Positions 19,659-64,000 are shown, counted from the stretch's first letter. The stretch: 64,000 bases of DNA from Spirochaetota bacterium (GCA_016934735.1 JAFGSG010000110.1:1457-65456), one strand, 5' to 3'. Translations and numbers: made by a program. Notes: a model not told the origin generated them from the letters alone.

Positions 19659-19696
19659 AACCTGATATGGAGATCAGGTTATATTAAACAAAGGAG
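19659..19696 (+). promoter_or_regulatory. Putative CsrA-binding hairpin in the flaB leader
   Basis: Perfect stem AACCTGAT/ATCAGGTT with loop ATGGAG, then AAAGGAG SD. Confidence 0.65.
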
Positions 19697-19704
19697 TGTT
19701 TAAG

Positions 19705-39997: not shown

Positions 39998-40178
39998 AAT
40001 TTACAATAATACGTGATTAGTTTTTAATTTCAATATTAAAATTATTGACTAATTTATTATAAACAGTAGATGTTTTCATTCCTTTTAAATTTCAATCTAA
40101 TTTTATTAAATGTGTTTTTAATAGATAACTTTTATTCATTAATGCTTTGCTAAAATATTGCATAGACCGCATTTTATT

Positions 40179-40946: not shown

Positions 40947-40949
40947 ACA

Positions 40950-47211: not shown

Positions 47212-48711
47212 TCAGTTTGAAAAATTTTTTCGAAAAGAAATTCTATCCAAGCCCTCTCTGCATATTTCCATAAATACCGTGAGCTTGAATAATCTGCACA
47301 ACCCAATATAGACCGCACCACCAACGATTATTTGCGATAATAATAATGACCAGACATTTGGAAATGGCAGCAGACTGACTAAATAAACGCAAACTCCCAT
47401 TAAAAGAGAGACACTTATATATGGCAATAAATCGAATATTTGTTCGATAATACTGTAATTCAATAATTTTTTGCTATAATAACTGTTCAAATAATAGCTG
47501 ATAACAGAGGTAATTATCATACCGTAAATCATTGCTGAAATTCCCCAGCGCCATGTAATAGCAATATTGATTACAATTAATATTTTTTTAATAACTTCTA
47601 ACCGAAAAAACAAATTTGATTTGCCCAATGCTTCCAACGCGTTCAGGTTTATTAGATGCATAGGTAATAATAATCCTAAAAAACAAAGCAATTGTAAGTA
47701 TGGAATGGACTCACTCCATTTTTCACCAAATAGCACAATTATCAATGGACGTGAAACCAGGGAGAGACCAAGCATTACGGGAATATTTATAAAAGAAAGA
47801 CTGGTTAATGCTTTTTTCATAACCCTTTTTAATCTTTCACGATCATCCTGAAGCGTTGAGAACACAGGAAATGTGACCCTGCTTACCATACTGCCCAGAG
47901 TTTGAGAAGGCACATCCTGCAAGGTAGATGCACGTGTAAAATAACCCAAATCGGAAGCTGAAAATAATTTACCTATAACTAAAAGATAAATATTATTAAA
48001 AATCTGATTAAGCAATCCCGAAGCAAGCATTCTGGAACCAAATGTAAAAAGAAGACTAAGGGATTTTAAATTAAAAATGGCAGATGGGCGCCATGTATTG
48101 AATATCCATAATAATAGCGTACTTAAAAAAGCTCTTGAAATCTGCTGTATGGCCAGACTCCATACCCCGAAACCATTCAGGGCCATTACAATTCCTATGA
48201 TGCCTGAAACAATACTTGAAACAATATTCGCTTTTGTCAGGATCTTGAAATTGATCTCTTTCGTAACAATAGTAGTCTGTATTAAACCAAATGAATTAAT
48301 TACCAGTACCAGCGAAAGCAAACGTGTAAGCGGGGTGAGAACGGGCTGTTTATAAAAGTCGGCAATCCATGGAGCAGCAAAACATAATAAGGCTGCAAAA
48401 GCGATGCCAACTACAATATTAAAGTAAAAAACCGAGCAAATATCCGTCTGGGTGGCATCGCATTTCTGAATGAGCGCAGAACCGAATCCGCTGTTCAGGA
48501 ATGTCTGGGAGACTGCTATAAAAATTGTCAGCATTCCGATAAGGCCGAATTGTGCCGGGAGCAGCAGCCTGGCTAATATTATACTTATAATGAATTGGAC
48601 TGTCTGCATGCCGATGGTTTCAATAAAACTCCATGAAAGGGCATTAATAGTACTTTTTTTTAGGTTATCTTTCAATATATTACCAAGATATATGTTAAAT
48701 TTTTCATTCAA
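47212..48711 (-). CDS. wzx: Wzx-type flippase (WzxC-like)
   Basis: LARLLLPAQFGLIG, SGFGSALIQK, LGYFTRA, RVTFPVFS, many TM helices. Confidence 0.88.
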   Translation of the reverse strand: MNEKFNIYLGNILKDNLKKSTINALSWSFIETIGMQTVQFIISIILARLLLPAQFGLIGMLTIFIAVSQTFLNSGFGSALIQKCDATQTDICSVFYFNIVVGIAFAALLCFAAPWIADFYKQPVLTPLTRLLSLVLVINSFGLIQTTIVTKEINFKILTKANIVSSIVSGIIGIVMALNGFGVWSLAIQQISRAFLSTLLLWIFNTWRPSAIFNLKSLSLLFTFGSRMLASGLLNQIFNNIYLLVIGKLFSASDLGYFTRASTLQDVPSQTLGSMVSRVTFPVFSTLQDDRERLKRVMKKALTSLSFINIPVMLGLSLVSRPLIIVLFGEKWSESIPYLQLLCFLGLLLPMHLINLNALEALGKSNLFFRLEVIKKILIVINIAITWRWGISAMIYGMIITSVISYYLNSYYSKKLLNYSIIEQIFDLLPYISVSLLMGVCVYLVSLLPFPNVWSLLLSQIIVGGAVYIGLCRLFKLTVFMEICREGLDRISFRKNFSN

Positions 48712-49310: not shown

Positions 49311-50453
49311 TTGATTATCAAACCATTTAAAGAACCAATATATGTAACCAGGCCGTTTTTACCTCCATTGAATGAATATGCTGATGGACTAAAGGAAATT
49401 TGGGATAGCAAATGGCTGACAAATAACGGTCCGGTTCTGAACCGTTTCAGCAAAGAGTTATGCGATTACTTTGAAACGGAAAATGTTTGTTTGTTTAATA
49501 ACGGTACGCTGGCCCTTCAGATAGCATTACAAGGTATGGGGATTTCCGGCGAGGTTATAACCACGCCATTCACCTTTGTCGCAACAACACACGCATTGAC
49601 ATGGAATAAAATAAGGCCGGTTTTTGTAGATATTGAACCGGATTACTATACGATCGATCCTGAGAAAGTCGAGGCTGCCATTACTCCGTGGACTACCGCA
49701 ATTCTTGCTGTCCATGTTTACGGCCATCCGTGCATGCTTGACGCTTTAACAGATATTGCGCGAAGATATAATATTAAATTAATATATGATGCAGCGCATG
49801 CCTTTGGAACAAAGGTCGGCCTTAAATCAATTGCCCACTTCGGCGATATGAGTATGTTCAGTTTTCACTCAACCAAGCTTTTCCATTCAATAGAAGGCGG
49901 CATGCTGATCTTTCCGGAAACAGGTTTTAAAAGTACATTCAACTATTTGAAAAATTTCGGTTTTAAGAATGAAGTGGAAGTTGTTATGCCCGGAACAAAT
50001 GCTAAAATGAATGAAATGCAGGCATTAATGGGAATACAGGTATTAAAATATATCAATGAAATAATTGAAAAGCGATCAAAGATAACCAAAATGTACCGCG
50101 ATTGCCTTAAAAATATTCCGGGTATAATACTTCCGCCTCCTTTACCGGCACATATAGAGAATAATCATGCATATATACCTATAGAAGTAATTGAAAAAGA
50201 ATTCGGGATGAGCAGGGATGCGTTGTATGAAAAATTGAAGCTTTATAATGTGTTCTCCCGTCGCTATTTTTTCCCTTTGATATGCGATTTTGCGTGTTAC
50301 CAGGGTTTTCCCGTAGTTGATCCCTTGGATGTAGCTCGTGGAGTCGCAAATCGCATATTATGTCTTCCTATTTATGACGGACTAGATTTGAATGATGTAA
50401 AAATGATATGCGAAATAATTAGAGAATTCCAAACAGGTAAAAATTTATTATAA
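49311..50453 (+). CDS. vioA: DegT/DnrJ aminotransferase, VioA-like (dTDP-4-amino-4,6-dideoxyhexose)
   Basis: YVTRPFLP, WLTNNGP, TTPFTFVAT, YDAAHAFG, SFHSTK (PLP Lys), GTNAKMNE, RRYF. Confidence 0.8.
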   Translation: MIIKPFKEPIYVTRPFLPPLNEYADGLKEIWDSKWLTNNGPVLNRFSKELCDYFETENVCLFNNGTLALQIALQGMGISGEVITTPFTFVATTHALTWNKIRPVFVDIEPDYYTIDPEKVEAAITPWTTAILAVHVYGHPCMLDALTDIARRYNIKLIYDAAHAFGTKVGLKSIAHFGDMSMFSFHSTKLFHSIEGGMLIFPETGFKSTFNYLKNFGFKNEVEVVMPGTNAKMNEMQALMGIQVLKYINEIIEKRSKITKMYRDCLKNIPGIILPPPLPAHIENNHAYIPIEVIEKEFGMSRDALYEKLKLYNVFSRRYFFPLICDFACYQGFPVVDPLDVARGVANRILCLPIYDGLDLNDVKMICEIIREFQTGKNLL

Positions 50454-50599
50454 ATTGCAAAAAAATATTCCACTTTATTGACAAATATTTATAATTATTA
50501 TATCTTATAAAGATTGATTGGATATTTTGTTTTAAAAAATATCGATTATGCTTTGTAGATAGATTAATTTGAATAAGCACTTTGTTCCAAGATATAACA

Positions 50600-50712
50600 C
50601 CTCGATGCTTGCGTCGAAGATGTAAGCAAATCGATAACCTTTTGAAACATAATACCCCGCTGACGCCGAAGACAGAAGTTGGTACAATAGTGCCGAGGGT
50701 TTGCCCCGGGGG
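50600..50712. repeat. Cluster of short GC-rich hairpins, copy B (related to 6563-6591)
   Basis: CCTCGATGCTTGCGTCGAAG; TTGAAACATAATACCCCGCTGACGCCGAA; GCCGAGGGTTTGCCCCGGGGG. Confidence 0.5.
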
Positions 50713-50885
50713 ATTTTATTTAAGTATAATTTGTTAAATCATTTTTTACAATAATTCATCTATAGTATCAGTTTATGACGTACTCGAATAATAATTTCTC
50801 AATCCAATCTCTTATATCTTTTACATTCATAAATTAATATTGGGTTTTTCACTTTAAGATTATTGTTAAAATCAATTAATAATAA

Positions 50886-51554
50886 ATGGGGATAAATATG
50901 GTGTTAGGTATATTTTGTGCCGGAGGTTTTGGAGGAGTTGTCTACGAATTGGCTCGGGAATTGAACCAGAAAAATACCAGATGGGAAAAAATATATTTCA
51001 TTGATGATGTAACCAATGAAGCAGTGGTTCGTGGTACTTCGGTATTCCGTTATAAGGATTTTTGTAATAAGTTTAGCAACAAAGAATCAGAGATAACAAT
51101 TGCCTCAGGGGAACCGTATGGCAGAAATAATATTTATAAAATCATAAAAGCAGAAGGCTATCAACTTGCTTCATTAATTCATCCGGATTCATATGTTTCC
51201 TCTAATATTGAAATAGGAGAAGGTATTATTGTGTTATGGGGGGCATCTTTGACTCCAAGCAATTTAACAGTCGGGAAGAATGTTGTTGTTATGTCACATG
51301 CGCATTTATCTCATGACTGTTTGATTGGAGATCATAGTGTTATAGCTTCATCTGCTGTAATCTCTGGAAACTGTAAACTAGGTAAATGTACTTATATTGG
51401 GATAAATGCCTCTATCAGGGAAGAAATAATCATTGGAGAATATTCAATTGTAGGTATGGGTGCAGTTGTTGTTAAGAATGTCCCTGATAATACGGTAGTA
51501 GTAGGAAATCCGGCAAAAGTAATTAATAATAATAAGAGAAGTGTCTTTAATTGA
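50886..51554 (+). CDS. NeuD/PglD-like hexapeptide acyltransferase
   Basis: AGGFGG, IASGEP..R, LIHP, SHDC, hexapeptide repeats, VVGNPAK. Confidence 0.88.
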   Translation: MGINMVLGIFCAGGFGGVVYELARELNQKNTRWEKIYFIDDVTNEAVVRGTSVFRYKDFCNKFSNKESEITIASGEPYGRNNIYKIIKAEGYQLASLIHPDSYVSSNIEIGEGIIVLWGASLTPSNLTVGKNVVVMSHAHLSHDCLIGDHSVIASSAVISGNCKLGKCTYIGINASIREEIIIGEYSIVGMGAVVVKNVPDNTVVVGNPAKVINNNKRSVFN

Positions 51555-51775
51555 TTTTATTATAATTATTAAGAAAATTTTTACACTGTTATAATTTATC
51601 AGACGATATATAATAATTGACTAATCAAGCTTATTAAACACATTATTATCACTTATTTTGTATCTCTTGGAATTTTCCCTCGCTCGCATTTAGGGGGTAG
51701 GGGGGGCTAATAAATTTTACTCTTTATAATAATTACACCGCAAAATGGAAATCTCCTGAATGAGTTAAAAAATAT

Positions 51776-52678
51776 ATGAATGATTTTTTAGGGTACACAG
51801 ATCAAAACTACGCTTATTCCTTAAGTGAATTCGGTCAGCCGCAGGAATTACCAAATTGCAAAGGGTGGATTCTTATAAGAGAAATTCCCGATACATCCTT
51901 AAAAGATGCCATGGGATGTTATCCCATTTTTACCTGCAAGAATTGGTTTAAGCTTCACGAAGATTTATCTCTTATTGATAAGAATGTCATATCACTTTCT
52001 CTTATAATTGATCCATTAGCAGATATCGGTATACAATATTTAAAACAGCATTTTCATCTTGTCAGGCCGTTTAAAAGTCATTTTATAGCTGATTTAAATC
52101 AACCATTACAAAAATTTGTAAGTAAGAGTCACATGAAAAATGTACGCAAGTCACTTAAAAAAATTGATGTTGAAATCTGTACGGAACTGGCTCAGTATCA
52201 TGAAGATTGGATTAGATTATATGATGTTTTAAAAAAAAGGCATAATATAAACGGGATTAATGCTTTTTCACACAGGAGTTTTAAGATTCAACTTAATATA
52301 CCTGGAATGATTATGTTTATTGCAAGACAGCAAGGAAATATCATTGGTGCATTGTTATTGCTTGTTAATGATAATGTCGGATACATCCATTTATCTGCTT
52401 TCAGTGATGAAGGATATGAAATTAAAGCTTCGTATGGTATTACATGGAAGGCACTTGAATACTTACAGGAGAAAGGGATTCATTTTGCACTTCTGGGGAG
52501 TATGGCTGGAATAAAAAATAATCTTCAAGACGGATTGGCATTATTTAAGAAAGGCTGGTCAAATGAAATTCGTCAAAATTATCTATGCGGGTATATTTTT
52601 GATCAACAAAAATATGAATCTCTCTGTCATAGAAACAGAATTAATAACACAGATTATTTTCCGGCGTATAGAGGATAA
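51776..52678 (+). CDS. GNAT/FemAB-like acyltransferase
   Basis: DAMGCYP, KSHFIADL, H.KNVRKSLKK, YIHLSAF, LFKKGWS. Confidence 0.7.
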   Translation: MNDFLGYTDQNYAYSLSEFGQPQELPNCKGWILIREIPDTSLKDAMGCYPIFTCKNWFKLHEDLSLIDKNVISLSLIIDPLADIGIQYLKQHFHLVRPFKSHFIADLNQPLQKFVSKSHMKNVRKSLKKIDVEICTELAQYHEDWIRLYDVLKKRHNINGINAFSHRSFKIQLNIPGMIMFIARQQGNIIGALLLLVNDNVGYIHLSAFSDEGYEIKASYGITWKALEYLQEKGIHFALLGSMAGIKNNLQDGLALFKKGWSNEIRQNYLCGYIFDQQKYESLCHRNRINNTDYFPAYRG

Positions 52679-52680
52679 AT

Positions 52681-53832
52681 TTATGAGATATTAATCCTTT
52701 TTAAATGTTTAGTAACTGATTTTAAATAATTTGTTGAATTTTCAAAATCTTTCATCTGACTTTTATAAATATTATCTAATTCATTATACCAGCAGGATGA
52801 AAATGGTTTATTTCCTGGCAATAAAGCAGTAAATAGTTTTATAAATCTATTACATAATCTAAATTTAAAAAAATCAATTCCCCAACCAAAATCAATATAG
52901 GAAATAAAATTTGTAATATTTTGTCTAATACATTCATCTAATAATAAAATACCCGGAGAAATTTGTTTAAAATTGGTGTCGTAAGCTGTATCGTAAAAAT
53001 AAACATGATTTTTAAAATAAATGCTTGTGAGAAAAGCAATGTTTGAATCATTTATCTGCAGATAGCTGACTTTTGATTTAAAATGTGAATATAATTTACG
53101 TATAAATTCATTCTTATATATAGTTGAATAATTATTTTCTATATGATTTTTTTTATTATGCTTGAAATCTGATAAACGTTTTAATTCTTCAAAATCATTT
53201 TCTTCCATTTCTTTATTAATGAAGTTAAACCTGTAACCGGACTTTCTTATTCTATTATTACATAAGTTCAGCATCTCTATTATTTTTTTTGGATAATAAA
53301 TTTTTTTGTATTCATCGTAATTCTGGCTTGATGTAAAAAAGGCTACTGATGAATATGTCTCCGGATATACATGTTGATAAAAAATAGTATTTTTATTTGG
53401 AGAAAATTCCGGTATATGATTCAATGAGACTAAATGAAATTGTTCTGTTGCATAAAGCCAGTTTAAGACAAATTGATGAGCTTCGTTATCAATTCCATTA
53501 GTGATAATGTCAGAATAAGTTGCCCCCATCTGCTGGCCTATGAATTCGATCGATGTTACTTTTAAAAATTTTTTTCTTTTTCTTATAATTTTGCAAAAAG
53601 GATATATTGCTATTAATACCCCGTTTTTATATAAGAATATTACTAATAATTCGCGAGCTATTCCCAATTCATTTTTTTTCCCTTTAGAAAAGCTTTGCCA
53701 GAAAGTTAATATATAGTAATAGCTGAAGGTGAATTTAAGATTGATTATATTTTCTTCGAATGCTAACCATTCATTTCCCCGCGTTATCAATCCTTCTGAG
53801 TTTTTCAACACCTCTACTCTATAGTTCATCAT
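52681..53832 (-). CDS. CelD/BcsL-like GNAT acyltransferase
   Basis: LIAIYPF, TYSDI, LNLCNNRIRK, YDTAYD..FKQISPGILL, DFGWG...KFR. Confidence 0.75.
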   Translation of the reverse strand: MMNYRVEVLKNSEGLITRGNEWLAFEENIINLKFTFSYYYILTFWQSFSKGKKNELGIARELLVIFLYKNGVLIAIYPFCKIIRKRKKFLKVTSIEFIGQQMGATYSDIITNGIDNEAHQFVLNWLYATEQFHLVSLNHIPEFSPNKNTIFYQHVYPETYSSVAFFTSSQNYDEYKKIYYPKKIIEMLNLCNNRIRKSGYRFNFINKEMEENDFEELKRLSDFKHNKKNHIENNYSTIYKNEFIRKLYSHFKSKVSYLQINDSNIAFLTSIYFKNHVYFYDTAYDTNFKQISPGILLLDECIRQNITNFISYIDFGWGIDFFKFRLCNRFIKLFTALLPGNKPFSSCWYNELDNIYKSQMKDFENSTNYLKSVTKHLKRINIS

Positions 53833-54035
53833 GATATTTGCTCATTTTGATTGTTATTAAATCATTGGGACATTACAAGGGAAAAGAAAAAGAAAATCAA
53901 TATTATTTTAAAACTGAAAATATTTTTATTGATTCAATATGGGGTTTATGATGAACTGATGAGGTACCCGATAAGTAAATATTTTTATCGAAAAATGTTA
54001 AGAAAAGCCCACAGCTTGCTGCTGGGAGATGCATT

Positions 54036-55157
54036 ATGACAGATAATTATGATTATAGAATTAAAATAATTCATGATTTTAAAGAATTTCTTTCTTTAGA
54101 AAAAAGATGGGATGACCTCCTTGATTCAATAGAATTTCCGCTTCTTTTTTCAAGTCACGCATGGTTACGTACCTGGATAGAAGACTCTTCAAAAAAAAAT
54201 TCATTATTTATTTTGACAATCTGGGATAAAGACAGGTTAGCCGGGATACTGCCATTAGAACGAAAAACTTTCAGGACTTGCAAAATATTGAAGTTTTACG
54301 GCTTCCATTCATTGAGTGATCCTCGTATGTGTGCAGCTTTTAATATTATTTGTTCAGTTAAAGAAATGGATAAAATTATTAATACACTTAAAATATATTT
54401 TCGATTAAATCGCAGCTGGGGGAGAATTGAGTTAAATTTTGTTCCTTATGATTTTAGAACAGTTGAAAAATTGTATAATCAATTTAATGATCAACATTTT
54501 ATAGCTACAATAGAACCTTATAATGGTTCATACTATATAGACATTAATGGAGATTTTGATACATTCTTTAATAAATTAGGTAGTAATTTCCGTAGAAAAA
54601 TACGAGTGAGGAATAAAAGAGTAGCAGAATTGGGAGAAATCAAATTTGAAGTTTTAACAACATTTGATATAAAAGAGTTAAACCGATTCTATAAAGTTGA
54701 AGATACAGGATGGAAACATGATAACGGCCAGCCTATAAAAAAATCAGAGGATTTATTAGTTTTTTATAATAAAATAGCTGAAATTTTTTCAAGCAACCAT
54801 CAATTCATTTTGGCAAATTTATTAATAGACAACCAACTTATTGCTTCTGAATATGCCATAGTTTTTAATAATGTTCTTTATCTTATTAAAATTGGAGTAA
54901 ATTATTCTTATCCGGGATCCAAGGAGTTGTCATTCGGGCATCTGATAATTTATCATTTGATCAAATATGCGTTTGATAATTATATAAATAAGATTGATTT
55001 TTATGGCCCGATATATGAATATGAGAGCCATTGGACCAAAGCAATTAATCAGAAATATACAATCAATATTTTCAACAGTCATAATTCAATCGCTCTAATA
55101 TATCTGTTTATAAAATTTTTAAAAAATTTTTATAGAAATATCATTGGCAGATTTTAA
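54036..55157 (+). CDS. CelD/BcsL-like GNAT acyltransferase
   Basis: RWDDLL, SHAWLRTW, LAGILPL, NFRRKIR...KR, SFGHL, DFYG. Confidence 0.78.
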   Translation: MTDNYDYRIKIIHDFKEFLSLEKRWDDLLDSIEFPLLFSSHAWLRTWIEDSSKKNSLFILTIWDKDRLAGILPLERKTFRTCKILKFYGFHSLSDPRMCAAFNIICSVKEMDKIINTLKIYFRLNRSWGRIELNFVPYDFRTVEKLYNQFNDQHFIATIEPYNGSYYIDINGDFDTFFNKLGSNFRRKIRVRNKRVAELGEIKFEVLTTFDIKELNRFYKVEDTGWKHDNGQPIKKSEDLLVFYNKIAEIFSSNHQFILANLLIDNQLIASEYAIVFNNVLYLIKIGVNYSYPGSKELSFGHLIIYHLIKYAFDNYINKIDFYGPIYEYESHWTKAINQKYTINIFNSHNSIALIYLFIKFLKNFYRNIIGRF

Positions 55158-55507
55158 AACTAGAATAATATTGTGTAAATTATAAAACACTTGATAGAAT
55201 TAATTTGAAAGATTCATTAAAACAAAGAATATTAAATGCCCTTTCCTTAGGTTTTATTAAAACAATACGCTTGCATAGTATTCAATTTATTGTCGGAATC
55301 ATAATTAATGAATTTCTTCAGGAATATTTGTTTAGTGATCAATTTTATAATGGTTTTATTAGCAATTAACCGGTTTTATATTACGTTAAAATTTGTATTT
55401 CAACAGAATGCTTAATAGCTAATGCATTTTATAAATAGCTGTAACTATAGTGATTCTTAATAGTAAGCTACTGCATTTATTGCTGGAATCAAGGAGGTTG
55501 TTATATA

Positions 55508-56170
55508 ATGGAAAAAGTAATATTGTTTGGAAATCAAGCTATGGCAAAGGAAGCTTATTTTTGTTTTAAATATCATTCAAAGTATCAAGTTGTTGGTTTT
55601 ACAGTAGACAAAGAATACTTGGAATCAGATACATTTCTTCAATTACCAGTTGTGCCGTTTAACGATGTTGATAAAATATTTCCTCCCAGTGAATATAAAA
55701 TGTATATAGCCGTTGGCTATGTCCAGAATAATAAAATAAAAAAAGACAGATATTACCGTTCAAAACAAATGGGTTATGAATTGATTAATTTTATCAGTCC
55801 TCATTCAATTATTTATCCGGAAATCATCGAAGGGGATAATGTTTTTATTGGCCATTATGTTATGCTCTCTCCGGGATCAAAGGTGGGTAATAATGTGAGT
55901 ATCGGCGGTGGTTCAACAATCGGTCATGATGTAATAATCGGAGATCATTGTTTCTTTTCAAATGGTGTTTCTATTGCCGGCAGCGTAACTATCGATTCAT
56001 GTTGTTATTTCGGTACAAATTCAACAGTAAGGAATAAAGTAACTATCGGAAAAGAATGCGTGATTGGCGCTGGAGCTGTTTTGCTTGAAAATGCACGGGA
56101 TAGAAGCGTATATCTGTGCGAGCCTGGAAAATTACTTCCAATTTCAAGTGATAAATTACCTCTGGGATAG
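55508..56170 (+). CDS. NeuD-like hexapeptide acyltransferase
   Basis: LFGN, VGFTVD, LPVVPF, IAVGY, TIGHD, hexapeptide repeats. Confidence 0.85.
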   Translation: MEKVILFGNQAMAKEAYFCFKYHSKYQVVGFTVDKEYLESDTFLQLPVVPFNDVDKIFPPSEYKMYIAVGYVQNNKIKKDRYYRSKQMGYELINFISPHSIIYPEIIEGDNVFIGHYVMLSPGSKVGNNVSIGGGSTIGHDVIIGDHCFFSNGVSIAGSVTIDSCCYFGTNSTVRNKVTIGKECVIGAGAVLLENARDRSVYLCEPGKLLPISSDKLPLG

Positions 56171-56249
56171 AGTAGTTCGGTCATGAAGAATTTAATGTAA
56201 CTTCTGCGTTTGAAGTGCTGCATTATAAATATTAATAAGGAGATTCGAT

Positions 56250-59200
56250 ATGTCAGAAAACTTTGAGTCATATCCTCTGACACCCCTGCAGGAAGGAATG
56301 CTGTTTCATACCCTTTCCTATCCTGGAAGCGGTGTAGACATAATGCAGGTTGTATGTACTATAAAAGAACCTTTAAATAATGTTACCTTTAAGGACGCTT
56401 GGGCAAAGGTAATAGAGAGACATTCTATACTAAGAACGAGGTTTAAATGGGAAGGATTGGAAAAACCCATACAAACGGTTATTGAACGGATCGATACACC
56501 TCTTGTGTTCTATGACCTACAGGGGATAGATTCATTTTTGCAAGATTTGGAAATAAGAAAATATATAAAAGATGATCGCGCAAAAGGCATAAATATGCAG
56601 GAAGCGCCTATGATGCGTCTATCAGTATTTATAATAAATCCATCAGAATTTTCTTTTATTTGGACATTCCATCACGCAATAGTTGATGGAAGATCACATG
56701 AAATTATTTTAGAAGAATTCTTTTTACTTTACGATATTTTCAATGAAGGGAAACAGATTGAACTCAGTAAACCAAAACCATATAGTGAATTTGCAGAATG
56801 GATGCATAATCAGAATTTTGACTACAGTGAATTATATTGGCGTGACACTTTGAAAGGTTTTGATTCTGCAACGCCAGTTCCCTTTACAAATCAAATTGGA
56901 ATTGCTCCTAATTTAGATGAAATTGGTGTTTTAGAATCATCCATTCCTTCAGATATTAAATTAAAACTAAAATCATTCGCAAGTATAAACGGGGTTACAC
57001 TGAATACTTTAATTCAAGGCGCATGGGCTTTGCTATTGTACCATTATAGTCAAAAACATGACATTATGTTTGGCATTACCCGTTCTTGCCGCTATTCGGG
57101 TATTAAAGACGAAGAAGAGATGGTTGGGCTGTTTATCAATACACTGCCTTTATGTATCAGAATTAACACAAAGCAAACACTACTAGACTTTCTCAAGGAT
57201 ATAAGAGAACAAAATATAACACTGAGGCAATATGAAAACACGCCTTTGTATAATATTAATAAATGGAGCGGTTTTCCACCTAATTCATCTCTATTTGAGA
57301 CCCTTATAGTATTTGAAAAAGGTTCTCTAAACCATAAATTACGTTCCAGAGGTAAAAAATGGCTTAAACGACACTTTATGAGGTACCAGAAAACCGGATA
57401 CTTGATCAGTCTGATTGTTTATGACGATGAAGATTTAACTATTCGTATTGAATATGACGGACATCTTTTAAAAACCAAAGATATTGAACGGATTAGCACT
57501 CATATTTCTAAATTACTTATATCAATGCCGTCACATTTACAGGAACCAGCTGTAAAAGTACCATACATGCATAAAGAAGAGATTAATGAAATATTATTTA
57601 GCCGGAATAATACATATAGGGATTACCCCACTAATGTTACGCTAGTGGTATTGTTTGAATCTCAGGCAGCAAGAACACCTGACTCAGTAGCCTTGGAATT
57701 CGAAGGATCAACAGTATCATACCGTGAATTGAATCAGCGTTCAAATCAACTCGCTCATCATTTGAGACGTGTCGGAGTGGGGCCGGAGGTGCCTGTCGGG
57801 ATACTTATGGATCGGTCTGTTGAAATGGTCATTGCTATCTACGGCATAATCAAGGCTGGCGGTGCATATATGCCTATGGACCCACAATATCCTGATGAAA
57901 GGCTTGAATTTATGATTGAGGATGCGAATGTTCCCGTTGTACTTACCCAGAAACGTTTTGTAAAAAGGATTCCCGTGAATGCGGTCAGGGCGATTTGTCT
58001 TGATGATGAAAGGGGACTGTTGGAGTCTGAAAGCATCTTAAATCCGGGCGGAGGGGCTTGTCCGGAAAATATGGCATATATTATTTATACATCAGGTTCA
58101 ACAGGTAAACCAAAAGGCGTAATTAATGAACATCGCGGTATTGTAAACCGTCTTTTATGGATGCAGGAAGCATATCAATTAAGTCATTCCGACCGGATAT
58201 TGCAAAAAACTCCTTACACATTTGACGTTTCCGTATGGGAGTTTTTCTGGCCATTACAGGTCGGTGCGCGGCTTGTCATTGCGATTCCTGAAGGGCATAA
58301 GGATAGCGCTTATCTTGTACGTCTCATCAGAGAAAAAGAAATTACTACAGTTCACTTTGTTCCGTCCATGCTTCAATTATTTCTTGAGGAAGAGGAAGTT
58401 GAGAAATGTGTTAGCATTAAACGCGTGATTTGCAGCGGTGAGGCATTAAGAATTGAGCATAAACAGAGATTTTTTGAACGTTTAAATGCGGAACTTCATA
58501 ATCTTTACGGGCCTACAGAAGCCGCAGTAGATGTGACATTCTGGCAATGCAGGAAAGACGATGGACTTAAGGTTATACCAATAGGTTTCCCAGTAGCAAA
58601 TACTCAGATATACATTCTTGATCCTGATCTTCAGCCCGTACCTTCGGGATGTGTCGGAGAGCTTCATATAGGCGGAATACAGGTAGCGCGCGGTTACCTT
58701 AACCGTCCTGAGTTAACATTAGAGAAATTTATACCGGATCCGTTCAGCAGAATGCCGGGAGCAAGGCTCTATAAAACCGGAGATCTTGCGAAATATTTAC
58801 CGGACGGAAGTATTGAATACCTTGGACGTATTGACTTTCAGGTCAAGATACGCGGATTACGGGTTGAACTTGGAGAGATAGAAACCAGAATAGACGAATT
58901 CGATGGGATTGCTCAGAATGTCGTCATAGTTTCGGAGGATTCTTCAGGGAACCAAACACTGGTCGCGTATTATACTGAAATTCCGCATGGAAATGTCGAT
59001 GTCGCGAAACTGCGTAAATATCTGCAGGATAGTTTGCCTGAATATATGGTCCCACAGCACTTTATAAAACTGAATAGGATACCATTGTCATCTAATGGGA
59101 AAACAGACAGGAAAGCTCTGCCCCCAATTAAGTTTGAGAGGAGAACGGAGGCAATATATATCGAACCAAGAAACAGCGAAGAAAAAATTGTTGCTGATGT

Positions 59201-59489
59201 CTGGAAAGACCTTCTTAAATTGGATAAAGTTGGTATCGATGATTCATTTTTTGACCTAGGTGGTCATTCACTGCTTTTAATCAGAATGCTTGGTAAGCTT
59301 AAATCGCATTTTAAAAAAGAATTGAAAATAATTGATTTTTTCCAATATCCATCTATCAGAAAACTTGTTGAATATCTGACAGATAATAAAAAAGATGAAA
59401 CTATTGCCGTGAAAGTCTCGAATATTGCAAGTAGACAGAAAGAATTTATGAAAAAACAAAAAAAGATAGCTACAAAGGGAAGGGAATAA
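56250..59489 (+). CDS. Single-module NRPS, C-A(Ser)-PCP
   Basis: C: YPLTPLQEGMLFH, HHAIVDG. A: YTSGSTGKPKG, NLYGPTE, YKTGDL, GRIDFQVKIRGLRVELGEIE, NGKTDRK. Hand-read specificity code DVWHISLVDK (Ser type). PCP: FFDLGGHSL. Confidence 0.93.
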   Translation: MSENFESYPLTPLQEGMLFHTLSYPGSGVDIMQVVCTIKEPLNNVTFKDAWAKVIERHSILRTRFKWEGLEKPIQTVIERIDTPLVFYDLQGIDSFLQDLEIRKYIKDDRAKGINMQEAPMMRLSVFIINPSEFSFIWTFHHAIVDGRSHEIILEEFFLLYDIFNEGKQIELSKPKPYSEFAEWMHNQNFDYSELYWRDTLKGFDSATPVPFTNQIGIAPNLDEIGVLESSIPSDIKLKLKSFASINGVTLNTLIQGAWALLLYHYSQKHDIMFGITRSCRYSGIKDEEEMVGLFINTLPLCIRINTKQTLLDFLKDIREQNITLRQYENTPLYNINKWSGFPPNSSLFETLIVFEKGSLNHKLRSRGKKWLKRHFMRYQKTGYLISLIVYDDEDLTIRIEYDGHLLKTKDIERISTHISKLLISMPSHLQEPAVKVPYMHKEEINEILFSRNNTYRDYPTNVTLVVLFESQAARTPDSVALEFEGSTVSYRELNQRSNQLAHHLRRVGVGPEVPVGILMDRSVEMVIAIYGIIKAGGAYMPMDPQYPDERLEFMIEDANVPVVLTQKRFVKRIPVNAVRAICLDDERGLLESESILNPGGGACPENMAYIIYTSGSTGKPKGVINEHRGIVNRLLWMQEAYQLSHSDRILQKTPYTFDVSVWEFFWPLQVGARLVIAIPEGHKDSAYLVRLIREKEITTVHFVPSMLQLFLEEEEVEKCVSIKRVICSGEALRIEHKQRFFERLNAELHNLYGPTEAAVDVTFWQCRKDDGLKVIPIGFPVANTQIYILDPDLQPVPSGCVGELHIGGIQVARGYLNRPELTLEKFIPDPFSRMPGARLYKTGDLAKYLPDGSIEYLGRIDFQVKIRGLRVELGEIETRIDEFDGIAQNVVIVSEDSSGNQTLVAYYTEIPHGNVDVAKLRKYLQDSLPEYMVPQHFIKLNRIPLSSNGKTDRKALPPIKFERRTEAIYIEPRNSEEKIVADVWKDLLKLDKVGIDDSFFDLGGHSLLLIRMLGKLKSHFKKELKIIDFFQYPSIRKLVEYLTDNKKDETIAVKVSNIASRQKEFMKKQKKIATKGRE

Positions 59490-59490
59490 A

Positions 59491-62400
59491 ATGCCGGAGC
59501 AGGATAATTTATTAGAGGATGATATTGAACGAATCGCTATAATCGGAATGGCGGTACGTTTTCCCGGAGCAAATAATATTGATGAATTCTGGCAGAACAT
59601 CAGAAGCGGTATTGAGTCTATAACTAATTTTAGCGATGATGAATTAAGAGCTTATGGGGTACCTGAAGACTGGCTGTCTGCACCAAATTTTGTCAAAAAC
59701 GGGACCATATTAAACGATGTTGATAAGTTTGATGCAGCGTTTTTCGGCTATAGCCCAAGGGAAGTTATATTCATGGATCCACAGCATAGGCTGTTTATTG
59801 AATCGGCATGGGAAGCTCTTGAAAACGCGGGTTATATGCCAGAAAACAATAATAATTCGATAGGTGTTTTTGCTGGTTCCGGCCCTAATGAATATTCAAG
59901 CTTTTTATCCGATTTCAATGATAATACAAATCCAGCCGCTCAAATGGAACAACTAATTGGAAATGAAAGGGATTTTTTATCGACACGTGTGTCATATAAG
60001 TTGAATCTGAAAGGACCGAGTATGACGGTTCAGACCGCCTGTTCAACATCATTAATCGCTGTACATCTGGCATGCCAGAGCCTGCTTAGTTATCAATGTT
60101 CACTATCGCTGGCGGGCGCAATTAGTATAAATGTAACAAGAAGCAAGGGTTATTTTTATCAAGACGGAACAATTGTATCGCCTGATGGCCATTGTCGTGC
60201 ATTCGACGCAAAGGCAAACGGAACAGTTGGAGGGCAGGGTGTTGGAATAGTTGTTCTTAAGCGTTTATCCGAGGCAATTGCTGATGGCGATCATGTCTAC
60301 GCTGTTATCCGAGGAAGTTCCATCAACAACGATGGAGGGATGAAAATCGGATATACAGCCCCGAGTGTTCAGGGCCAGGCAGAAGTAATAGCCATGGCGC
60401 AGGCAATAAGTGATACTCCTCCGGACTCAATAGGTTATATCGAGGCACACGGTACCGGGACAAAGCTGGGTGATCCGATTGAAATTGAAGCACTCACTCA
60501 GGCTTTCAGGATTGGTACAGCTAAGAAACAGTTTTGCGCTATAGGATCGGTAAAAAGTAACATCGGACATGCAGATAGCGCAGCAGGCATTGCTGGTTTA
60601 ATTAAGACGGCTTTAATGCTAAAATACAAGGAGATTCCGCCAAGCATTAACTATAATGAACCCAATCCGTCAATCGATTTTAATAATAGCCCGTTTTATG
60701 TATCGACCCGGCTTTTGGAATGGAAAACTGATGGAGCCCCCAGGAGAGCCGGTGTGAGTTCATTCGGCATAGGCGGCACTAATGCTCATGCAATTCTGGA
60801 AGAGGCTAAACCGGCAATACCGTCTGTTATATCCGGACCATACCGATTAATGATGATCTCCGCCAGATCCTCACAGGCATTAAATAAAGCATGTATTAAT
60901 CTGGCAGAATTTATTGAAAAAAAACCGGATATTAATCTGGCTGATGCTGCTTTTACACTTCAGGTCGGGCGAAGAATCTTCGATCATCGCCGGGTAATTT
61001 TATGCCGGGATAGTAAAGAAGTAATTACTAAATTGAAAGGAAGTGACCAGAACGGAGTACTTTCAGGAAATGAACCGAAATCCGCACCTTTGGTTGCATT
61101 TATGTTTTCAGGGCAGGGATCACAATATGCCGGAATGGGATCCGAGCTCTATAAAAAAGAGGGCGTATTTAGGGAACATGTTGATAGATGTTTAGACACT
61201 CTTTCTTCCACGCATTCGATTCATCTTCGCAATATAATTTTCCCGGCTAAAGGCATTCCTGATGAAGCGCAGAAGAAAATAATCCGTACCGATATTGCGC
61301 AGGCATCATTGTTTGTCTTGGAATATGCTCTTGCGCAGCTTTGGATTTCGTGGGGAATAAAACCCAAGGCAATGGTCGGTCACAGTATCGGAGAGTATGT
61401 GGCCGCATGTTTATCCGGTGTTTTTTCTCTGGATACTGCTCTTTCACTTGTAACTGCAAGGGGAACCCTGATGCAGCAGGCAATGCCTGGGGCTATGCTC
61501 GCGGTAAGCCTGCCGGAAGCTGAAGTAAGAGATCTGACAGGCGATGGCCTTTCATTGGCGGCTGTTAATGCTCCTATGAGCTGTGTCGTCTCCGGTGATT
61601 TCCTGCTGATTGAAGCTTTTGAGAAACGGCTTGAAAAACAGAAAACAGGATTTCGCCGGCTGCATACTTCGCATGCTTTTCACTCCGCGATGATGGATCC
61701 GGTCCTTTCCATGTTCAGAAAAGAAGTAAGCAGGCACAAATTCAGCCCTCCTCAGATACCATATCTATCTAATCTTACCGGCGACTGGATTACGGCAGAA
61801 CAGGCCACAAATCATGAATACTGGGTGGAGCATCTACGCAATACGGTTATGTTTTCAGAATGCGCAAAAAAGCTACTGGATAACGAGAACATGATTCTGC
61901 TTGAACTCGGGCCAGGGAATACTCTTTGTTCCCTGGCTATGCAACAGTCCGCCAAAGCAGCCGGCAGCAGGATTTTTTATTCTGTCCGAAGACACGATGA
62001 AAAAAGATCCGATGAAGAATTTATTCTGACAGTTCTTGGCAGGCTGTGGCTTCTGGGCATAAATCCTGATTGGCACGGATTTTATAAGGATGAGAAGCGG
62101 CAGCGCGTACCATTGCCCACATATCCGTTTGAGCGGGAAAGATACTGGCCGGATTATAAAATTTACAAAGAAAATGTAGACAAACAAAAGATTATGCCTG
62201 TTCAGATGATCTCTGATTTGATGGCCACAAATGATGAAAAGAACACTATAAGCAAAAATAAAAATGAGGAAATATTATATCCATCTAAAATTGAGGATAA
62301 AGTATTGGCTATTTGGCAGGAATTATTACAAATTAAAAACATAAAGCCGGATAGTAATTTTTTTGAGTTGGGCGGAAATTCGCTTATAGGCGCTAATCTT

Positions 62401-62583
62401 ATTGTAATGATCAATCGTATTTTTGGGATCGAGCTGACAGTGGATTCAATCTTTTATTCGCCGACCGTATTACAAATGGCTAAACTAATTGAAGAGACAA
62501 AAACCGGCGATCGTAAACAGAATAATTTGAATGTAAAGAATACGATAGGGGATGCAATAAAAATGCTCGGTTTAACTGATTGA
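59491..62583 (+). CDS. Single-module type I PKS, KS-AT-ACP
   Basis: KS triad TACS, EAHGTGT, NIGH; AT GQGSQY, GHSIG, HAFHS (malonyl type); post-AT LPTYPFER; ACP FFELGGNSL; no KR/DH/TE. Confidence 0.93.
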   Translation: MPEQDNLLEDDIERIAIIGMAVRFPGANNIDEFWQNIRSGIESITNFSDDELRAYGVPEDWLSAPNFVKNGTILNDVDKFDAAFFGYSPREVIFMDPQHRLFIESAWEALENAGYMPENNNNSIGVFAGSGPNEYSSFLSDFNDNTNPAAQMEQLIGNERDFLSTRVSYKLNLKGPSMTVQTACSTSLIAVHLACQSLLSYQCSLSLAGAISINVTRSKGYFYQDGTIVSPDGHCRAFDAKANGTVGGQGVGIVVLKRLSEAIADGDHVYAVIRGSSINNDGGMKIGYTAPSVQGQAEVIAMAQAISDTPPDSIGYIEAHGTGTKLGDPIEIEALTQAFRIGTAKKQFCAIGSVKSNIGHADSAAGIAGLIKTALMLKYKEIPPSINYNEPNPSIDFNNSPFYVSTRLLEWKTDGAPRRAGVSSFGIGGTNAHAILEEAKPAIPSVISGPYRLMMISARSSQALNKACINLAEFIEKKPDINLADAAFTLQVGRRIFDHRRVILCRDSKEVITKLKGSDQNGVLSGNEPKSAPLVAFMFSGQGSQYAGMGSELYKKEGVFREHVDRCLDTLSSTHSIHLRNIIFPAKGIPDEAQKKIIRTDIAQASLFVLEYALAQLWISWGIKPKAMVGHSIGEYVAACLSGVFSLDTALSLVTARGTLMQQAMPGAMLAVSLPEAEVRDLTGDGLSLAAVNAPMSCVVSGDFLLIEAFEKRLEKQKTGFRRLHTSHAFHSAMMDPVLSMFRKEVSRHKFSPPQIPYLSNLTGDWITAEQATNHEYWVEHLRNTVMFSECAKKLLDNENMILLELGPGNTLCSLAMQQSAKAAGSRIFYSVRRHDEKRSDEEFILTVLGRLWLLGINPDWHGFYKDEKRQRVPLPTYPFERERYWPDYKIYKENVDKQKIMPVQMISDLMATNDEKNTISKNKNEEILYPSKIEDKVLAIWQELLQIKNIKPDSNFFELGGNSLIGANLIVMINRIFGIELTVDSIFYSPTVLQMAKLIEETKTGDRKQNNLNVKNTIGDAIKMLGLTD

Positions 62584-62742: not shown

Positions 62743-63483
62743 ATGGAGGGAACTATGGGGAAAGGAGACGTTTTCATTAAATCTAAAAATGTTTTAATTT
62801 TTTTTATGTTTGTAACGGCACTTTTATTAATTGCTCATTTAACAGTAAATGTTATTCGTATTACAACAGGACATAGCGGATTGTTTGGTCTTGGTACAAT
62901 GTTTAACTTTTTCTATGAGAGGAATTTTCCAACATATTTTTCTTTATTTCTTTTATTATTTTCTTCATGTTTGCTGTCTATAATTTTTTATATAAAATTT
63001 AATAATTTTGATAAATTCCGTTTTCATTGGGGTTTTTTGGCATTAATTTTTTTATATTTATCATTCGATGAAGGTATGGAAATACATGAACAATTATCGG
63101 AACCGGTGCAAAGAATGCTCAATATCTTGCCCGGTTCTCTGGAATATTGGGGATGGATTATTCCGTTCAGCATACTTGCGCTGATTTTTGCATTGTGCTA
63201 TATACCCTTTTTCTTTCATTTAAACAAGAGATTTCGAATTTATTTTTTTCTATCTGCATTGATATATATATTTGGAACAATTGGTTTTGAATTTATAGAG
63301 GGATTTTACAGTATTCCATTTGCTGATAAACATGACTTAAATTATATAATTAACAGTACCCCATTTTTTATTTTGGTCACCATTGAAGAGTTACTTGAGA
63401 TGGGGGGAATTATCTTTTTTGTTTATACGCTTATCGAATATATAAAGTCAATACCATTCGAAATACAAATAAAATTTGATTAA
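62743..63483 (+). CDS. Polytopic membrane protein of unknown function
   Basis: About 6 TM helices; ERNFPTYFS, SFDEGMEIHE, WGWIIP, IEELLEMGG. Confidence 0.7.
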   Translation: MEGTMGKGDVFIKSKNVLIFFMFVTALLLIAHLTVNVIRITTGHSGLFGLGTMFNFFYERNFPTYFSLFLLLFSSCLLSIIFYIKFNNFDKFRFHWGFLALIFLYLSFDEGMEIHEQLSEPVQRMLNILPGSLEYWGWIIPFSILALIFALCYIPFFFHLNKRFRIYFFLSALIYIFGTIGFEFIEGFYSIPFADKHDLNYIINSTPFFILVTIEELLEMGGIIFFVYTLIEYIKSIPFEIQIKFD

Positions 63484-63545
63484 TTTGGAAAGAATAATTA
63501 GAATAATAAGTAAGTATGAATTTCTCAGGAATAAGGAGGTTCCAG

Positions 63546-64000
63546 TTGAGGAAAGCAGTTTTAATGAATATGTTTATTATAGTAATTATAAATTTTTTCG
63601 CTTGTTCGAAATTTTTTCGTTCATCAACGAACGTAAAGTACAAACAATTTTTTATAAATACGTCTAAAAATCCGCCATTGCTTGACGGTGTCGAGTTAGG
63701 TTATGGCAGAAATGATGGAACCCTGCGGATATACACGCCGAGAGATGCGGAAAAATCTTCCGGGTATGAATATTCTTTCACTAATAATAAATGGAGCTCT
63801 TTAACAAATTTTAATTCGACGGTTCTCTGCGTCTCTCCCGTTATAACAGATTTAAAAAAGGATGGGTCTAATTCTCTTTTTTTGGGCGGATGGAACGATC
63901 TGGGCGTAATCACTATGAAATACAGCAATGCCTGGCCGGAACCGTCGGTTCTTCCAAGGAGTTCAGGGAAAGGCATAATTCTGGCAATGAATGCAGGCAA
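63546..64000 (+). CDS. Lipoprotein with FG-GAP/VCBS-like repeats (partial, runs off window end)
   Basis: Not in the track; translated by hand. AAGGAGG RBS then TTG; MRKAVLMNMFIIVIINFFAC (lipobox), LGYGRNDGTLRIY, TDLKKDGSNSLFLG; open to 64000. Confidence 0.7.
   Translation, partial: MRKAVLMNMFIIVIINFFACSKFFRSSTNVKYKQFFINTSKNPPLLDGVELGYGRNDGTLRIYTPRDAEKSSGYEYSFTNNKWSSLTNFNSTVLCVSPVITDLKKDGSNSLFLGGWNDLGVITMKYSNAWPEPSVLPRSSGKGIILAMNAG

Follow-up and report, generated by a model that had tools for sequence, protein, structure and literature searches.

A 64,000-nucleotide stretch of DNA from a Spirochaetota bacterium (GCA_016934735.1, JAFGSG010000110.1:1457-65456; hereafter the window, i.e., the whole stretch that was analysed) carries a pair of adjacent genes encoding a non-ribosomal peptide synthetase (NRPS) of the domain order condensation-adenylation-peptidyl carrier protein (C-A-PCP) and a type I polyketide synthase (PKS) module of the order ketosynthase-acyltransferase-acyl carrier protein (KS-AT-ACP). 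Here, we observed that this pair lies in a polysaccharide locus, that its PKS ends in a bare ACP and that, wherever this is the case in related loci, a 220-aa hexapeptide acyltransferase of the NeuD/PglD/VioB family is encoded next to the pair. We propose that the assembly line builds an (N-acyl-)seryl-malonyl-derived beta-ketoacyl-ACP and that the 220-aa transferase moves this chain onto an amine made by a DegT-type sugar aminotransferase, a reading of the whole to which we give an even chance of being right. The broader view, that such lines form a multi-phylum class of glycan-tailoring systems in which a PglD-like left-handed beta-helix enzyme releases a seryl/ketide chain directly onto a nucleotide-activated amino sugar, is put forward tentatively, as slightly more apt to fail than to hold.

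Both genes of the pair look functional. In the NRPS, Pfam recognised Condensation (E 3e-79), AMP-binding (6.5e-94), AMP-binding_C and PP-binding domains, and the motifs follow in order: HHAIVDG (residue 141), AYIIYTSGSTGKPKG, FDVS, NLYGPTE, YKTGD, GRIDFQVKIRG, NGKTDRK and GGHS (1003), the last of which holds the carrier serine of the PCP; core motifs A3-A10 of the A domain were all found. The PKS comprises the N- and C-terminal ketoacyl-synt domains, the KS-AT linker, Acyl_transf_1 (5e-52) and PP-binding, and no ketoreductase (KR), dehydratase (DH), enoylreductase (ER) or thioesterase (TE) domain was detected in it by Pfam. Its Cys-His-His triad is complete (TACSTS, EAHGTG, KSNIGH), the AT shows GHSIG at residue 630 and a malonyl-type HAFH at 728, and the ACP carries GGNS. 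The stop codon of the NRPS gene (TAA) and the ATG of the PKS gene are 1 nt apart (TAAAATG), and colinearity from NRPS to PKS agrees with the C-terminal TE found on homologous PKSs (loci L003, L063 and many others). Among solved structures, the best match to the PKS is 8xju, a 1029-aa PKS which also has the KS-AT-ACP build (E 2e-245) and which we take, as a guess only, to be ClbI.

The ten positions of the A-domain specificity code, taken from the A4, A5 and A10 landmarks, read DVWHISLVDK. This is a serine-type code, matching such codes as the EntF-like DVWHFSLVDK, and is read here, at the level of motifs, as predicting serine loading. A database search seeded with the NRPS recovered a clade whose members, each about 1080 aa long and 44-70% identical to the query, are stand-alone C-A-PCP proteins; among 56 of these relatives, 45 share the code DVWHISLVDK and three have DVWHFSLVDK (together 48/56), and most of the clade retains HHxxxDG. 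The nearest matches to the C domain are McyB, PvdL-C1, TycB1 and SrfA-C, which places it nearest to DCL-type domains and PvdL-C1 and distant from classical starter C domains.

Further sequence was available past the window end from two contigs: L001, the source contig from a sediment metagenome, which is identical over 14,510 nt and extends 3 kb further, and L007, a contig from the metagenome-assembled genome (MAG) of an uncultured Leptospirales bacterium, which is 97-99% identical at the protein level and reaches 7 kb past the PKS. The PKS stops 30 aa past the ACP, and no cis-acting release domain (TE or reductase) stands at the end of the line; likewise, no TE was found in the window, and neither a TE nor an extra module nor a transporter or efflux pump follows the PKS within up to 7 kb downstream in L001 and L007. 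Instead, the genes after it encode, in this order, a 246-aa membrane protein, a 381-aa lipoprotein-like protein, a family 2 glycosyltransferase (GT2), a GT8-like protein, a methyltransferase and a GH16 protein. In an alignment, the bare KS-AT-ACP proteins of the clade end in a common K-[ML]-[LI]-G tail after the ACP (the last 12 residues of the window PKS), which may be a candidate docking motif for a trans-acting partner.

Consistent with function, the NRPS is under purifying selection relative to its counterpart in L007 (ratio of nonsynonymous to synonymous substitution rates, dN/dS, of 0.17), and a divergent strain in a bioreactor metagenome (run X2) keeps both genes without coding indels. 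Two metatranscriptome contigs from the sediment of the source study are 100% identical to parts of the NRPS gene (56842-57023 and 58583-58735), which is weak evidence for its transcription in situ. An apparently broken NRPS in L007 was dismissed, as the split open reading frame (ORF) reflects a scaffold gap of Ns and no frameshift. A scan for promoters and terminators gave counts not clearly above those of shuffled sequences and no terminator-like site between the genes of the proposed operon. The G+C content of the A, KS and AT segments is 43-47% vs. 26-35% in the flanking GNAT, hexapeptide-transferase and membrane-protein genes, which fits either horizontal acquisition from a donor of higher G+C content or a strong amino-acid constraint.

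A hint at the fate of the product comes from a comparison of release devices across lineages, in which all loci were labelled with one common reference set. The homologs of the PKS (48-65% identity) occur in three builds, namely bare KS-AT-ACP proteins of about 1028 aa, KS-AT-ACP-TE proteins of about 1290 aa, and KS-AT-ACP proteins with an additional C-terminal domain (1261-1370 aa), and each glycan-type locus has exactly one release device. An ortholog of the 220-aa transferase adjoins the pair at every bare PKS, i.e., in the window and L007, L002 (75% identity), L010 (72%), L011 (72%) and L004 (45%), while none was found in L063, where the PKS is fused to a TE, or in L005, L006 and L008, where it has the additional C-terminal domain. 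In L003, whose PKS is fused to a TE, a transferase remnant of 48 codons (9728-9871, 73% identity) is left in front of the NRPS gene, which looks like an evolutionary swap of release devices. The fused C-terminal domain is itself of two kinds, comprising about 330 aa in the group of L005, L008 and P0129 and about 200 aa in L006, the two being unrelated by BLAST. For the former, neither Pfam nor NCBIfam nor a PDB sequence search gave a match; a faint precomputed Acetyltransf_9 match and a single PGAP name ("GNAT family") exist, and an AlphaFold2 (AF2) model reached a predicted local distance difference test (pLDDT) of 44. Taken together, the distribution suggests that the 220-aa transferase, the TE and the fused C-terminal domain could be interchangeable release devices. 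In the exosortase-, TE- or C-terminal-domain-bearing subtype, and solely there, the pair is moreover accompanied by a protein of about 380 aa lacking a Pfam match (L005 7674-8840, L006 7727-8890, L008 5575-6708, L063 17227-18411), with the motif SQLLWAARGRTPHFY...PWGMTIPTWAG; by eye it gives the impression of a nitroreductase/SagB-like protein, and a relation to the GNATs of the window was rejected.

The transferase gene lies directly upstream of the NRPS gene, separated by 80 nt. The closest solved structures to its product are PglD (E 1e-19), PerB and VioB, followed by LpxA and LpxD. Its His140 (in "IGHD") aligns with the histidine of "IEHE" in the PglD structures 2npo, 2vhe and 3bss, and this position is invariant across six aligned hexapeptide proteins; the catalytic histidine of PglD is His125. 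A metagenome scan seeded with an alignment of four orthologs of the transferase returned 52 loci. Wherever the flanks were informative, orthologs of at least 64% identity lie beside an NRPS-PKS (L011, L013, L015) or an A-PCP protein (L016), and relatives of 38-46% identity directly follow Pfam-verified A-PCP didomain proteins in L017, L019, L020, L046 and L058. Others of 38-46% directly follow an ortholog (62-74%) of the DegT aminotransferase of the window (L021-L025, L032). The DegT protein itself finds its best NCBIfam model in a DesI-type 4-aminotransferase, below all curated cut-offs, and it likely makes the acceptor amine on the sugar; its orthologs reach 76% identity in L010 and 64% in L004, in the latter directly upstream of the transferase-NRPS-PKS block. 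As a separate observation, L016 (3135-10663) encodes a phosphopantetheinyl transferase (PPTase), an acyl-CoA dehydrogenase and a 1105-aa protein in front of its transferase ortholog (64%), the 1105-aa protein having an interrupted A domain with an insert of about 430 aa, two PCPs and no KS. Transferases of this clade thus appear to be served here by another source of carrier-bound acyl groups.

The glycan context of the pair recurs throughout. NRPS relatives of at least 48% identity lie in polysaccharide loci in 10/10 lineages, covering Leptospirales, Nitrospirota, Acidobacteriota and metagenome contigs, with the surrounding genes drawn from Wzx, Wzy, Wza, Wzz, glycosyltransferases, DegT, deacetylases or exosortases. 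Besides the window and L007, these are L002 (NRPS 70% identical; Wzz, Wza), L003 (64%; Wzz, Wza, WbqC, GT2), L004 (54%; GT2, two DegT, Wzx, GT4, MBOAT), L005 (52%; Bac_transf, exosortase EpsH/EpsI, deacetylases), L006 (50%; exosortase, GT4, deacetylase), L008 from Nitrospirota (48%; Wzz/GNVR), L010 from Nitrospirae (51%; GT4, two DegT, Wzx, GT2s), L011 (Wzx; the A domain is 65% identical, a contig end cutting the NRPS) and L063 from Acidobacteriia (48%; AsnB, Wzy, Wzx, GT4). With such a recurrence the glycan context is not accidental, and conserved synteny shows the pair to be dedicated to glycan synthesis. Between the window and L010, the DegT protein (76%) and the transferase (72%) are better conserved than the PKS (55%) or the NRPS (51%), with Wzx at 62% and a GT2 at 53%. 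At 46% identity the clade reaches its boundary, where an Aulosira protein (L064) has an internal serine module followed by a KS-AT-KR-ACP module within an ordinary multimodular line. The boundary also shows in a Microcoleus homolog of the PKS (L009), which belongs to a small lipopeptide-type cluster lacking glycan genes, primed by a fatty acyl-AMP ligase (FAAL) and terminated by a TE. Given this boundary, the glycan-embedded pair looks like a serine module and a PKS module excised from a cyanobacterial-type assembly line, with which the G+C contrast is consistent.

In its description of the locus the first-pass annotation of the window was borne out. It had described intact C-A-PCP and KS-AT-ACP genes 1 bp apart, specific for serine and malonyl, with no KR, TE, reductase or efflux gene and with Wzx, a VioA-like aminotransferase, two NeuD-like enzymes, three GNAT-fold proteins and GT2s as neighbours, and Pfam and motif reading concur; the two checks it had proposed, for modules, a TE or a transporter past 64 kb and for homologs of the pair outside glycan loci, returned nothing in L001 and L007 and, at 48% identity or more, no such homolog in the ten lineages.

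In the proposed pathway, the A domain would load L-serine onto the PCP, and the C domain would probably N-acylate it with an acyl group from an acyl-CoA or acyl-ACP of primary metabolism. The KS would then join the (acyl-)seryl unit to malonyl-ACP loaded by the HAFH-type AT, leaving the terminal ACP loaded with a 4-(acyl)amino-5-hydroxy-3-oxopentanoyl thioester, in which the beta-keto group would be kept because the line has no KR. The chemistry predicted up to this point follows from motifs and colinearity. Instead of hydrolysis, the 220-aa transferase would take the ACP-bound chain as donor, as LpxA and LpxD take acyl-ACP, and form an amide with the amino group placed by the DegT enzyme on a nucleoside-diphosphate (NDP) sugar, a step which we infer from co-variation and family membership. 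Finally, GT2s would build the decorated sugar into a repeat unit, which Wzx would flip. Sister loci would release their chains differently, by the TE or C-terminal domain fused to the PKS. In L010, a gene for a beta-keto acid cleavage enzyme (BKACE; 15422-16261) stands two genes after the KS-AT-ACP gene, a position worth noting given that the line is predicted to yield a beta-keto acyl group.

Several observations weigh against this pathway. To our knowledge, no NeuD/PglD-family enzyme has been shown to work with a carrier-protein-bound donor, the characterised members using acyl-CoA. In L023-L025, the transferase relatives (40-41% identity) stand behind DegT, yet 6-9 kb around them hold neither a carrier protein nor an adenylating enzyme, and the transferase family is therefore not uniformly carrier-linked. 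In L004, the pair is flanked by both the transferase and an MBOAT. Neither a FAAL nor a free ACP lies near the pair as a source of the acyl donor for the C domain, and no PPTase was found in the 67 kb available (window and contig extension), though one adjoins the pair in six sister loci; a PPTase may, however, be encoded anywhere in a genome. Furthermore, the comparison covers about ten lineages, mostly metagenomic, the carrier organisms being known from MAGs or metagenome contigs.

Of the alternative explanations, the first concerns the off-loading enzyme, which the first-pass annotation had sought among the GNATs, listing the 220-aa transferase just as a NeuD-like neighbour. One of the Acetyltransf_6/FemAB-like proteins encoded at 51776-55157 would then transfer the same acyl-ACP, the hexapeptide enzyme being only an N-acetyltransferase. 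Indeed, the stretch from DegT to the pair contains three GNATs, L004, L005, L006 and L063 likewise encode Acetyltransf_6/FemAB proteins close to the pair, and some sister PKSs end in the domain with the faint Acetyltransf_9 match and the one NCBI name "GNAT family". However, the bare-PKS loci L002, L010 and L011 lack orthologs of the 373-aa and 383-aa GNATs (the sole resemblance of the 373-aa protein being 23% to an L006 protein), L010 has no Acetyltransf_6 gene despite full flanks, and the fused domain of about 330 aa is unrelated to the GNATs of the window by BLAST and by hhalign (probability 0.1%). FemAB-type enzymes, moreover, classically use aminoacyl-tRNA. With the 220-aa transferase co-varying with the bare ACP terminus, off-loading by a GNAT is quite unlikely, and of the glycan-decorating seryl-malonyl line envisaged in the first pass, the intact pair, its specificity and its dedication to glycans stand, while the proposed off-loader does not. 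Homologs (39-49%) of the 300-aa FemAB-like protein adjoin transferase relatives in L002, L019-L021, L034 and L038, a recurrence that speaks for GNAT off-loading and for which this protein stays a candidate for a further tailoring step. We regard as very unlikely a Dlt-like route in which the MBOAT (40950-42620), together with its SGNH partners, receives the ACP product, which would then be esterified to the polysaccharide on the outer side of the cytoplasmic membrane. The window MBOAT lies about 14 kb upstream of the pair in its own sub-cluster, no MBOAT is found near the pair in L002, L003, L010 and L011, and sets of MBOAT and SGNH proteins are common O-acetylation modules of polysaccharide loci. 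DltB (TIGR04091) is the best-scoring NCBIfam model for the window MBOAT, which is flanked by two SGNH/GDSL proteins, yet its 164.5 bits are far under the cut-off of 375; adjacency of an MBOAT to the pair is restricted to L004, where one of 41% identity starts 10 nt after the PKS gene. A locus combining FkbH-ACP-MBOAT with a relative of the 246-aa membrane protein (L065) also speaks for this route.

A small molecule or lipid acting beside the polysaccharide as a free product, e.g., a signal, a surfactant, a membrane anchor or an exosortase-related acceptor in the form of an N-acyl-serine-derived beta-keto acid, aminoketone or tetramic acid, could be released in the window by spontaneous cyclisation or by a hydrolase. 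Many close PKS homologs are TE-terminated, including those of the glycan-embedded loci L003 and L063, the conserved C domain at the starter position suggests lipo-initiation, exosortases stand beside the pair in L005 and L006, and the Microcoleus homolog belongs to an ordinary FAAL-primed lipopeptide-type cluster; a precedent exists in N-acyl amino acid synthases with a link to exosortase loci (PMC4897644). For the TE-bearing sisters, a free product resembling a lipo-amino acid or a tetramic acid is plausible. For the window it is unlikely: in the bare-ACP subtype, the occurrence of a single release device at each locus and the joint conservation of DegT and transferase point to a transfer reaction, no hydrolase, exporter or exosortase was found in the window, and the operon runs straight into glycosyltransferases. 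Finally, the pair might be a horizontally acquired relic, non-functional for want of an accompanying PPTase, as the 67 kb without such a gene, the deviating G+C content of the A, KS and AT segments and the rearrangement seen in a wzx remnant beside the block might imply. Two open reading frames of about 1000 aa with every motif intact, the dN/dS of the NRPS, the second strain and the RNA contigs argue otherwise, a PPTase may lie elsewhere in the genome, and we give decay hardly any credence.

Table 1. Features of the window discussed here (positions counted from its first nucleotide).
Feature	Position	Strand	Description
Two FlaB-type flagellins (~285 aa) and fliM	9623-10471, 16875-17900, 19696-20556	-, +, +	10-40 kb off the glycan locus
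722-aa fusion protein	21786-23954	+	PlsC-type acyltransferase domain and alpha/beta-hydrolase (Hydrolase_4) domain
Truncated DDE transposase ORF	28619-29293	-	~1 kb before the first sugar gene (30325)
625-aa fusion protein	31266-33143	+	Sugar-1-phosphate nucleotidyltransferase, GmhB-type HAD phosphatase and uridine-kinase-like P-loop domain
GDSL/SGNH (262 aa), MBOAT (556 aa; 40950-42620) and SGNH-like (369 aa) proteins	40158-43719	+	Pfam Lipase_GDSL_2, MBOAT
Wzx-type flippase	47212-48711	-	Pfam Polysacc_synt_3, E 8e-96
DegT/DnrJ/EryC1 sugar aminotransferase	49311-50453	+	Pfam E 1e-90
Second NeuD/PglD-family hexapeptide N-acetyltransferase	50886-51554	+	222 aa; TIGR03570 189.7 bits (cut-off 160.8), PglD_N
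FemAB/Acetyltransf_6-like GNAT-fold protein	51776-52678	+	300 aa; weak Pfam FemAB and Acetyltransf_6 matches
Acetyltransf_6 GNAT-fold protein	52681-53832	-	383 aa; Pfam E 9e-13
Acetyltransf_6 GNAT-fold protein	54036-55157	+	373 aa; Pfam E 2e-15
wzx remnant, N-terminal ~90 codons	55205-55432	+	tblastn with the window Wzx: 35% over 89 aa, E 4e-6; between the last GNAT gene and the 220-aa transferase gene
220-aa NeuD/PglD/VioB-family hexapeptide acyltransferase (LbH220)	55508-56170	+	TIGR03570 166.4 bits (cut-off 160.8), residues 3-208
NRPS module C-A-PCP	56250-59489	+	1079 aa; C ~56268-57593, A ~57654-59102, PCP ~59190-59378
Type I PKS module KS-AT-ACP	59491-62583	+	1030 aa; KS ~59527-60654, AT ~61099-61953, ACP ~62296-62490; short conserved C-terminal tail
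246-aa polytopic membrane protein	62743-63483	+	Conserved downstream of, or inside, the pair
381-aa lipoprotein-like repeat protein, start	63516-64000	+	Runs off the window; complete in L001 (14026-15171)

Apart from the pair, the window holds further glycan genes (Table 1), including Wzx, three GT2s, a heptose set resembling GmhA, HddA, GmhB and HddC, and an epimerase/dehydratase; an AsnB-type amidotransferase upstream of the pair scores 474 bits vs. the 817 cut-off of TIGR03108. Neither a Wzy polymerase nor an initiating phosphoglycosyl transferase was recognised among the window ORFs scanned; of the sister loci, L063 encodes Wzy_C, L005 Bac_transf, and L002 and L003 Wza/Wzz; an exosortase (EpsH/XrtA) gave no match in the 67 kb and was found in the sister loci L005 and L006 only. 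The 222-aa hexapeptide protein is 28% identical to the 220-aa transferase and probably an ordinary sugar N-acetyltransferase; the orthologs of the latter enzyme in other loci likewise share only 28% identity with the second PglD-like transferase found there. Orthologs of the window Wzx lie beside the cassette in L010 (62%) and L011 (65%), and an intact wzx adjoins the 220-aa transferase in the orthologous loci L010, L011 and L016, whereas the window has a remnant at this place; the cassette was hence rearranged here. The trio of GDSL, MBOAT and SGNH-like proteins would form an extracytoplasmic O-acylation set and is a possible alternative route for the ACP-bound acyl group.

The 246-aa and 381-aa proteins encoded after the PKS are both conserved with the pair in L002, L003 and L007, in L003 both between NRPS and PKS. 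Orthologs of the former show 58% (L002), 50% (L003) and 92% (L007) identity, and its family comprises 22 members with no name or Pfam domain and with invariant D105, E106, H111, E112, E179, E212 and E215; an AF2 model (pLDDT 88.7) found no fold match in the PDB (best E 1.6). A further member was observed in L065, a GT2-rich locus with FkbH-ACP-MBOAT. The 381-aa protein has orthologs of 55-91% identity in L002, L003, L004 and L007, gave faint FG-GAP and DUF7304 matches only, and a PDB sequence search returned no match. L004 has a homolog of the 381-aa protein alone, as part of a 702-aa protein; its genes for proteins of 250 aa and 425 aa were considered as counterparts of the two and rejected as not homologous.

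Moreover, several features lie further away from the pair. The 625-aa fusion gene is followed by genes for a GHMP kinase and a SIS isomerase, and together they constitute a compact GDP-heptose-like pathway, from which the acceptor sugar may arise via the adjacent epimerase/dehydratase. The truncated transposase ORF marks the left edge of the polysaccharide locus, and the window also encodes a fusion of a PlsC-type acyltransferase with an alpha/beta-hydrolase. The FlaB-type flagellin genes and fliM agree with a spirochaetal (Leptospirales) origin of the DNA; no link was found between them and the glycan genes of the window.

Bacterial surface glycans owe part of their antigenicity and physical properties to unusual N-acyl groups on their amino sugars, and the routes to such groups known so far draw on acyl-CoA, on sets of a single ligase and an ACP, or on type II enzymes. 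Supply of a nucleotide sugar by a modular NRPS-PKS would join two separately studied biosynthetic fields and, if true, would represent the first hand-off from a thiotemplate to a nucleotide sugar and define a thioesterase-independent release mechanism. Surface polysaccharides would then bear (N-acyl)seryl-acetyl beta-keto-amide side chains, and the sister lines fused to a TE or to an unknown domain would represent alternative solutions for release. This would also explain the "orphan" calls of NRPS and type I PKS made by genome mining in saccharide loci of Leptospirales, Nitrospirota and Acidobacteriota. That each locus holds a single release device is a rule open to direct test, and members of the hexapeptide transferase family would be candidates for use in coupling thiotemplate products to sugars. 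Searches of the full-text literature turned up no NRPS-PKS described as part of a polysaccharide locus, which does not prove that none exists.

The proposed line shares single elements with several known systems. PglD, PerB and VioB are N-acetyltransferases of 4-amino sugars that use acetyl-CoA, and the 220-aa transferase belongs to the same NeuD/PglB/VioB family, scoring above its cut-off. LpxA and LpxD are left-handed beta-helix transferases using acyl-ACP donors on UDP-sugars; they differ in belonging to another sub-family and in taking a fatty acyl-ACP from fatty acid synthase and not from a PKS module. In the Dlt system (DltA, DltC, DltB, DltD), D-alanine passes from DltC through DltB, and teichoic acids are esterified outside the membrane. 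As in that system, an A domain of the window would load an amino acid onto a carrier to decorate a surface polymer in the absence of a TE, and MBOAT and SGNH-type proteins are present; Dlt, however, involves no C or KS chemistry, and the window MBOAT lies far from the pair, with a score well short of the DltB cut-off. Minimal pairs of an NRPS followed by a PKS, in which one malonate extends an N-acylated or aminoacyl unit, are known from reutericyclin-type C-A-T plus KS-(AT)-T-TE lines and from ClbH/ClbI of colibactin. Unlike the line described here, these make free small molecules, end in a TE or pass the chain on, and do not lie in glycan loci.

The closest parallels come from surface glycans. 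The O-polysaccharide pathway of Flavobacterium psychrophilum (wfpC-G) places 3,5-dihydroxyhexanoyl on UDP-Qui2NAc4N, and its PglD homolog WfpG is predicted to acylate the sugar amine with a ketide-type group delivered by an acyl carrier protein specific to the locus (PMC6519341). Both loci combine a sugar 4-aminotransferase with a PglD homolog, and in both the transfer step is a predicted one. In F. psychrophilum, however, the acyl group is made from acetate units by discrete type II enzymes (two KS, KR, ACP) and is reduced, whereas the window has a modular type I NRPS and PKS which would include an amino acid and keep the beta-keto group. In Vibrio cholerae O1, the ligase RfbL and the carrier RfbK activate the tetronate acid with which perosamine, a 4-amino sugar, becomes N-acylated (PMC12208996). 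There, too, an O-antigen/glycan cluster includes a carrier protein and an adenylate-forming enzyme, but the set comprises a single ligase and an ACP with no condensation or ketosynthase chemistry; the transferase relatives beside A-PCP didomains (L017, L019, L058) come closer to this layout than the window does. N-acyl amino acid synthases, in turn, link lipo-amino-acid biosynthesis genetically to PEP-CTERM/exosortase exopolysaccharide loci (PMC4897644). The sister loci L005 and L006, with the pair beside an exosortase, resemble such systems, whereas the window has no exosortase; these synthases are single GNAT-related enzymes that join free amino acids to acyl groups from acyl-ACP. The N-acylation of amino sugars from carrier proteins is already known or predicted, and its gene set, i.e., DegT, PCP and ACP, the 220-aa transferase, Wzx and GT2s, is found in one locus in the window. 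New in comparison to these systems would be a type I modular NRPS and PKS supply line that includes an amino acid, hexapeptide transferases that form a conserved clade of their own and are tied to carrier-protein synthetases, and the interchangeability of the release devices.

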